Origin: Haplodiscus bocki
Lineage: Eukaryota
Assembly: GCA_965655095.1 (NCBI GenBank)
Contig: OZ296650.1
Coordinates: 70,432,001-70,496,000 of the forward strand
Reading direction: 5' to 3'
Length of the DNA: 64,000 nucleotides
Positions 28,092 through 29,170 of this stretch are shown one piece after another (the first letter of the stretch is position 1; every line of letters begins with the position of its first letter). The position numbers and the translations under genes were made by a program. The notes under the pieces are model-generated. The model was not told the origin of the DNA. It was given only the letters and a program-made list of their open reading frames with translations, and did no database searches.

Positions 28092-29170
28092 ATGAGAGAG
28101 CCAGTCAAACAAATATACGATCGCTTCAATCGCAAATTTGCACTAGCCTGCGAGTGGGGAAAATTGGGTTGGCAGGCAGTTCCAATTTTAAACGGAGATG
28201 GATTATCTAGTTGGGAATCCTTGGAAGCCGTCCATTTTAAAAACAAGCGAGTATTTGGCTGCGCAGATGATACTCCGTATGAAATAGCTAATCAATCGTT
28301 GATTACTTGGAAAGGAAAACCGAATTGTTTAGCAAAGAAATCTATGGTTGGTTTAAAAAACTGGGTTGCGCGGAAAGCGTACAAGGTTCCCGTTAAAAAG
28401 CTGCTATGTAGGGACAAGTTATTCGCACAGTCAATGGGCTGGGCTATGGATCTCTCGCAATTGGTGGAGATGGAAGTCCCTTCATATTTGGATTTACAAG
28501 AGCAAAATTCTATTATTACATGGGGTGGCTGGTTTACCGAAGGCCACGTGGAAATTGCTGGTGACGAGTCAGTGGCGTGCGTACCTTGGGGAGAAAGGCA
28601 TTTTTGATTGCAGAACGGGGCTCTGCATCGAAATTTTTAACCAATCAAACTAAACGTGGTAAGGAATTCATGAAGTTTGTGGAAGGAGGTCCTCCTACGC
28701 GGTATAAGAACAAAATTTTTTATTTTTTAAGTAAGAGAAACAGTTTGCTTATTCAGCCTGCGTTATGTGCCCATTCAGTTTTGACTTTTAGTCAAGGTGT
28801 TGCTATGGTCGCTGGATGGGAAGCCGGAAATAACCTGGATTCTGTACGCGTCAAAGAAGTAACCAACAATTATGGTTTTGGGGTGGGAAAAGGAACGCTA
28901 TCGCTCATAAAATCTGTACCCAAAAAGGATCGTGGGCAAATGATTGAATCTTTAAAACACCAGGGGACCAATGATGTTACTGATTTATTGGAGCGGTTGC
29001 AAAAACAAAATAAATGGATTGATAGTTGGGAGAAAGGAAAGCAAGGAAGACCAACGCTTGAAAAACGAAAATCTCGGGCACAGAATTTACCTTGTGTTGA
29101 GAATTGCAAAAAGACGAATCCCCAGAAACGGTTAGGGAATAAAAAAATTTTTTTTGTTTTTTTTGTGTAA
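28092..29170 (+). pseudogene. JmjC-domain 2OG/Fe(II) oxygenase, one frameshift (copy 1), antisense to the element
   Basis: Joined frames give ITWGGWFTEGHVE..GRKAFLI....LLIQPALCAHSVLT, matching the JmjC T-x-x-H-x-D/E, G-x-K and P-x4-H-x-V-x-T motifs; frameshift at about 28583-28597. Confidence 0.8.

Follow-up and report, generated by a model that had tools for sequence, protein, structure and literature searches.

The window analysed here is a stretch of 64,000 nucleotides from Haplodiscus bocki in which a first-pass annotation placed, at 28092-29170, a frameshifted gene for a JmjC-domain protein running antisense to a retrotransposon. The locus raises the question of whether such a gene is real and, if so, what kind of element carries it and what the protein would do there. 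The plus strand contains the two open frames split by a break that had been described, the first spanning 28023-28607 with an ATG at 28092 and the second spanning 28565-29170, the break lying in the zone where the two overlap. The codons proposed for the iron triad and for the Thr and Lys residues were recovered at Thr 28536, His 28545 and Glu 28551 in the first frame (28092-28607 from the ATG) and at His 28772 and Lys 28595, the latter within G-R-K at 28589-28597, in the second frame, which continues into a helical domain and a basic tail. Neither half matched Pfam at E <= 1 and the first half alone scored below 0.9 in the Atlas. Since a profile built from 34 natural relatives scored the halves with E values of 1e-46 and 2e-59 among 1204 frames, chance is excluded for the gene. 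The first and second halves are 88% and 91% identical in amino acid sequence to an unbroken genomic copy (L006); this copy and another (L017), each of which reads through in one frame, are frameshift-free paralogues of the kind that the annotation had proposed to look for. Two features go beyond that annotation: the gene is triplicated in tandem, and the element is without 1.9 kb carrying the adjoining env-like gene. Copies 2 (31650-32779) and 3 (35209-36290), likewise on the plus strand, have the same break as copy 1, and the three differ from one another over the gene by 0-2 substitutions and 1-3 gap columns. A programmed frameshift at the break was considered and rejected, the anchor spacing being private to the three window copies; of 12 other close copies, 11 have a different spacing in common and one carries a local deletion of its own. 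The break is thus specific to this insertion, which makes the window copy a dead gene and not the site of a programmed frameshift.

The surrounding element is one insertion on the minus strand, extending from 25986 to 45708 and inactivated by several stops and frameshifts, so that the plus-strand gene runs opposite to it as annotated. The element was recognized from its LTR pair, a 5-bp target-site duplication and Pfam domains. The LTRs, of ∼425 nt and 95.8% alike, are located at 25986-26408 (3' LTR) and 45284-45708 (5' LTR), both on the minus strand, the latter with a primer-binding-site-like stretch starting with TGG on its inner side, and the duplication ACTGG is found at 25981-25985 and 45709-45713. 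Internally, on the same strand, gag is present in pieces with a zinc knuckle at 43497-44731 (weak Pfam matches to zf-CCHC and Retrotrans_gag), followed by pol in pieces at 39184-43403 encoding protease, reverse transcriptase, RNase H and integrase (Pfam gag-asp_proteas, RVT_1, RT_RNaseH, Integrase_H2C2 and rve) and by a Macro domain at the end of pol (37763-38623, PF01661, E 1.8e-5). Since LTRs, target-site duplication and the order gag-PR-RT-RH-IN are all present, the element belongs to the Ty3/gypsy group. Its 3' part consists of three head-to-tail units of 3558 nt (26109-36787, 99.4% alike), each comprising part of the LTR, the 3' region and a JmjC cassette. Comparison with a relative (L052-L053) revealed a junction at 27523-27525, repeated in each tandem unit, at which ∼1.9 kb is gone. 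The missing stretch corresponds to positions 3348-5246 of L052 and includes an env-like match at 3949-5104, so that most of the env-like gene is deleted from the window element. In three relatives the corresponding ORF encodes 790-815 residues with a C-terminal hydrophobic stretch in all three, an N-terminal one in two, and a furin-like site preceding a hydrophobic peptide in two. It has no significant match in Pfam or the PDB and is called env-like on anatomy alone. As the three units all lack env and all have the JmjC break, we infer that both changes predate the triplication.

Several other features were noted in and around the element. Between the Macro domain and the cassette slot are two conserved sense-strand ORFs of ∼95-110 residues, at 36818-37225 (minus strand) and in the frame upstream; the same pair is found at 872-1643 of L136, and both begin M-N-N-L-(Y/F)-W and have no Pfam match. 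A further tandem array with a 3515-nt unit and without long ORFs adjoins the 5' LTR at 45862-53918, followed by two broken non-LTR retrotransposons encoding endonuclease plus reverse transcriptase (54370-58317 and 59338-62542). Intronless ornithine aminotransferase-like and uroporphyrinogen decarboxylase genes, ∼50 nt apart, lie amid repeats on the minus strand at 4926-6299 and 6351-7439.

The gene is one of many in the source genome. A DNA search returned 21 matches, including the single-frame copies L006 and L017, and a protein search returned at least 150 scored matches of 1234 candidates, most of them stop-free. Stretches of 20 kb were fetched around 20 matches picked for diversity and favouring long open frames. 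The JmjC gene was antisense to retroelement genes in all 20 loci, with pol domains in 18 and an env-like gene in 19, and was positioned between the two wherever both were found. One of the loci is a short non-autonomous element with the order LTR, JmjC, small ORF, env-like gene, LTR. The terminal repeats are 97-100% alike in 12 of the 20 loci and the family was therefore mobile recently. These results establish a multi-copy JmjC family tied to LTR elements. In some subfamilies a small sense ORF with no Pfam match was also seen between the JmjC and env-like genes (L017 2369-3022; L056-L057, L082-L083 and L088-L089).

Selection was assessed with the 18 sampled copies having an open frame across the motif, two being dropped. 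The copies are 19-94% identical in amino acid sequence (median 31%) and synonymous sites are near saturation, pS being >= 0.6 in 145 of 153 pairs. The ratio dN/dS was 0.21-0.61 across eight close pairs and 0.45-0.61 in five of the eight. Thr is conserved in 17 and Lys in 18 of the 18 copies, and the metal ligands predicted from the window copy are kept among family members (His 18, Glu 17 and His 17 of 18). In an alignment of 34 rows that includes distant relatives, Thr is found in 30, His in 32, Glu in 33, Lys in 32 and the second His in 31. Judged from the aligned sequences, the family is under purifying selection. The C-terminus had been described as basic with an NLS- or AT-hook-like character; each of 17 full-length copies has 8-11 Lys/Arg per 20 residues in its tail, although an AT-hook-like GRP motif occurs in only 2 of the 17.

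The gene is not a fixed part of its element. In unit 1 of the window the plus-strand cassette extends approximately from 27607 to 29455, the backbone identity ending at position 5330 of L052 and resuming at ∼7180, and backbone alignments generally break sharply on both sides of a slot of ∼1.9-2.2 kb. Elements with integrases 90-97% identical and env-like DNA 88-96% identical often carry JmjC genes only 43-62% identical, while in other pairs integrase, env-like gene and JmjC are all more than 90% identical. The JmjC and integrase trees appear to disagree, as cassette exchange would have them. Loci were also sampled independently of JmjC by a DNA search with the Macro domain, which gave 40 scored matches, 13 beside known JmjC copies, 25 that were fetched and two on a short contig that were left out. 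An antisense JmjC gene was present in 17 of the fetched loci, six had Macro and env-like genes without JmjC and two were also without the env-like gene. Over all 38 Macro loci the antisense gene was present in 30, one backbone bearing cassettes of at least four types. The six JmjC-less copies have a common slot sequence, indicating that a null variant was amplified too. Of 23 backbone copies that have the env-like gene, 6 are without JmjC, and their spread as a shared variant implies that the JmjC gene is dispensable in cis. On the evidence of these comparisons the JmjC gene is a swappable cassette, a property newly found here. A second element of the same backbone, with a different cassette type in its slot, starts at the left edge of the window (1-4361, and L147).

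A more distant query (P0140) gave 143 matches in the source genome, nearly all open, a list that may overlap with the 150 above. Same-strand pairs 13-15.5 kb apart account for 78 of the 143, and in both pairs examined another gypsy element has the JmjC gene, antisense, within each of its two TG...CA LTRs of ∼4.1 kb (LTRs at 4051-8184 and 18575-22700 of the joined stretch L112-L114; the other example is L115-L117). The reverse transcriptase and integrase of this lineage are only 25-31% and 27-31% identical to those of the window element. It also has Macro-like and env-like ORFs, with the Macro-like domain between RNase H and integrase, not after integrase, and with JmjC near the outer (U3-side) end of the LTR. 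No pol was found near three unpaired matches that were examined, which may be solo LTRs. Thus, a second, distant lineage carries the JmjC family within its LTR, also newly found here. Beyond the source genome the family comprises 180 representatives at E <= 0.001. Other assemblies and reads supplied some of the distant members, and one distant relative (P0069) was not found in the source genome at E <= 1e-15. No relative was confirmed among 68 pattern matches in IMG/VR, and phage records yielded none either. Eight metagenome contigs of 1-3 kb are too short for gene context. A cyanobacterial metagenome bin also lists a relative (P0086) that is 58% identical to the LTR-borne type; its contig, 1.9 kb long, is probably host DNA within the bin.

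The gene had been proposed to follow a ttttcag splice acceptor. The TTTTCAG heptamer is present at 27995-28001, but as a putative acceptor it is common only to near-identical copies (10 of 11), and an acceptor-like site occurs in 5 of 17 diverse copies. No poly(A) or splice signals conserved across subtypes were found in the 17 diverse copies, and near the stop, poly(A)-like hexamers are no more frequent on the strand of the gene (6 of 17) than on the opposite strand (9 of 17). As for the antisense transcription from the LTR that had also been proposed, the 3' LTR of full-length elements is separated from the JmjC gene by the env-like gene. The CpG o/e of 0.85-0.90 suggests little DNA methylation, which leaves histone marks as the likely silencing layer. 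A search of the source genome with one query for a PF00145 DNA methylase found none among four candidates, a result to be read with the ability of introns to hide such a gene.

The JmjC fold that had been anticipated was recovered in structural models of natural copies. Folds were modelled for two of these, the window copy being 51-56% identical to the folded copy. The AlphaFold2 model of L017 (P0001), obtained with 59 rows, had pLDDT 87 and pTM 0.82. Foldseek returned PHF2, PHF8, KDM7A and TYW5 as leaders with E values from 9e-9 (PHF2) to 5e-8, that of PHF8 being 1.5e-8. The VIA comparison gave ceKDM7A at Z 15.2 (rmsd 5.3, 270 aligned), PHF2 at 14.7 and KDM2A at 14.2, tied within 1 Z with JMJD5 at 14.4 (rmsd 3.3, 191 aligned) and JMJD6 at 14.3. 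For the second-lineage model (pLDDT 74.5) JMJD5 came first at Z 12.7, followed by JMJD6 and PHF2 at 12.4, and with both models the top 16-17 rows are all JmjC proteins. The whole protein scored 0.96 with JmjC clusters in the Atlas. Only weak giant-virus cupin/JmjC matches were found in BFVD, and Pfam JmjC was matched in 3 of 59 members with a best E of 0.0098, below the cut-off. The models thereby place the family firmly among the JmjC Fe(II)/2-oxoglutarate oxygenases, with a predicted JmjC fold and a helical domain after the barrel. Snurportin-1, which a single-sequence PDB search had returned among other chance matches at E >= 0.1, was ruled out by the fold.

The likeness to KDM2/KDM7 noted in the first-pass annotation is weakly borne out by sequence, and structure leaves KDM2/7 tied with JMJD5/JMJD6. 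When family profiles were compared with PDB sequences, 6 of 6 and then 7 of 8 matches were to the KDM7 group (PHF8, PHF2 and ceKDM7A) at E 0.15-0.77, the sole other row being unrelated at E 2.4. The Thr, His-x-acid, Lys and His are in register with KDM7-group PDB chains, Thr and Lys being aligned to PHF8. The catalytic exon of the intron-split KDM2/7 gene of H. bocki itself is the best non-family frame (E 0.13 of 1204), and it outscores frames from loci that, from their motifs, we take to be KDM5-, KDM6-, KDM4-, JMJD4- and JMJD6-like. The VIA alignments to KDM2/7 extend to model residues 324-332 in the C-terminal helices, whereas that to JMJD5 stops at 258. As for the JHD, the structural alignment covers the helices after the barrel; PF17811 finds only the host KDM2/7 gene in the source genome and is not among the 25 families listed for the 59 members. 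Like KDM7 (PHF8, PHF2, KDM7A, ceKDM7A) and KDM2, the family is predicted to have a JmjC barrel followed by helices, and motif-to-motif alignment gives the same spacing of T..H-x-D/E, G-x-K and P..H-x-V-x-T. Unlike them it is 12-15% identical, has Glu for Asp and is without PHD, CXXC and F-box, and it is below the Pfam JmjC cut-off, intronless and retroelement-borne. The frames of 350-420 residues consist of JmjC, helices and basic tail only and hold no reader domain such as PHD or CXXC. Longer relatives (815-2325 residues) were searched for and none was found, which is weak evidence. The assignment to KDM2/7 is weak, and an ancestry there likely.

We regard the gene, in its unbroken form, as very probably encoding a selected, catalytically competent oxygenase that works for the element. 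The reading that we hold, with barely better than even confidence, is that it is an accessory antisense gene in an exchangeable slot whose unbroken relatives would be JmjC histone lysine demethylases directed against host silencing; the narrower proposition of a histone methyl-lysine substrate serving anti-silencing stands at about an even chance. The sequence of events would begin with the ancient capture of a KDM2/KDM7-type mRNA and loss of its reader domains. The element would express the small JmjC enzyme from an antisense transcript of its own, and the basic tail would mediate nuclear import. The enzyme would then strip repressive methyl-lysine marks off element chromatin in cis and probably in trans too, in which case JmjC-less copies could ride along, and recombination would turn over divergent cassettes, a sign of host conflict. 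The anti-silencing reading is argued for by the active site under selection, the KDM7-like motifs and helices, the basic tail, the little CpG depletion, the position of the gene inside the LTR of the second lineage and an allele turnover typical of host conflict. KDM7 enzymes remove mono- and dimethyl marks and are not known to remove the H3K9me3 typical of transposon silencing in animals. This preference weakens the reading, as do the tie with JMJD5/6, the dispensability in cis and the lack of a PHD or CXXC reader domain, which leaves the targeting of the enzyme unexplained.

The main rival, which we consider unlikely, is a non-histone protein substrate modified by a hydroxylase of the JMJD5/JMJD6/JMJD7 type or an arginine demethylase, with a target such as a restriction or small-RNA factor of the host, or Gag of the element itself, and with cassettes that would track varied or fast-evolving targets. 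Neither structure search separates JMJD5 and JMJD6 from KDM7, the histone reader domain is absent, and extreme divergence of cassettes around a fixed active site suits changing targets over invariant histone tails. The Macro domain, a counter-defence module, is found in the same elements. Against such a substrate are the profile matches to KDM7-group chains (E 0.15-0.77), the alignment of the C-terminal helices with KDM2/7 where JMJD5 ends at model residue 258, and the basic tail in 17 of 17 copies. Action on nucleic acid (element RNA, primer tRNA or cDNA), in the manner of TYW5 on tRNA or of the orchid gypsy AlkB on m6A RNA, is quite improbable. TYW5 does score high (Foldseek rank 4; Z 13.3), the basic tail could bind nucleic acid and one report provides a precedent for an RNA demethylase in Ty3/gypsy (PMC9289625), but AlkB-fold proteins score far lower (Z 8.4-8.8) and the sequence motifs follow KDM7. 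The near-invariance of metal and co-substrate residues across 19-60% identity makes a non-catalytic role as a chromatin-binding decoy or scaffold more improbable still, although the within-subfamily dN/dS of 0.45-0.61 in five of eight close pairs would suit it. Fission-yeast Epe1 is an example of a protein acting without catalysis. Finally, a neutral passenger, a piece of captured host sequence replicated together with the element, would fit the broken window copies and the JmjC-less variants and is largely refuted, with hardly any probability left to it, by saturated synonymous sites, conserved catalytic residues, mostly open matches and retention in two distant lineages.

The family is real, selected and element-borne, and parasite-encoded chromatin erasers are already known as a kind. 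Retroelements carry chromatin readers, DNA methyltransferases and an RNA demethylase. The closest parallels differ from the family in enzyme, carrier or cargo. Endogenised giant viruses in Amoebidium carry KDM4-like JmjC-only genes proposed to counter host chromatin silencing (PMC11244446). These are likewise parasite-borne and without reader domains, but are KDM4-derived, intron-containing and carried by a giant DNA virus, whereas the present family is KDM2/7-like, intronless, antisense, swappable and carried by LTR retroelements. Ty3/gypsy elements of Phalaenopsis carry an AlkB m6A demethylase (PMC9289625), a 2-oxoglutarate oxygenase that is also an extra ORF; it belongs to the AlkB clan, acts on RNA and is near host enzymes, whereas the family is of the JmjC clan, highly diverged and represented by many alleles. 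Fungal DNA transposons encode TET/JBP, with none found in retrotransposons (PMC12730594); these eraser-type dioxygenases are also common to several element families but act on methylcytosine. Plant Retand elements have, like the family, antisense accessory ORFs in the interval from pol to the 3' LTR, but lack an env-like gene and carry TRP28 and other cargo, JmjC being unmentioned in the available text (PMC11963269). Retrotransposons carrying DNMTs have been described (PMC5890265). Among 823 TE-chromatin fusions most involve PHD or chromo, and 'JmjC' is absent from the main text, to which the supplement may add cases (10.1101/2021.11.30.470311); nor is it mentioned in the available text of 10.64898/2026.05.21.726589 or PMC6673714. 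A literature search of partial coverage, with Repbase-type catalogues outside it, found no report of a JmjC-encoding LTR retrotransposon.

A broader interpretation, possible but held with clearly less than even confidence, is that the two distant, retrovirus-like LTR lineages share histone demethylases as hypervariable, recombining anti-silencing cassettes, kept by one lineage within the LTR, that serve JmjC-less cheaters in trans, which would be a eukaryotic counterpart of phage anti-defence hotspots. The family adds hundreds of diverged JmjC enzymes missed by Pfam, and the occurrence of divergent alleles and of null variants on a shared backbone provides a natural comparison by cassette type within a single genome. 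If the enzymes do erase repressive histone marks, LTR elements would have a direct means of evading histone-based silencing and of inflating the 1.5-Gb genome.
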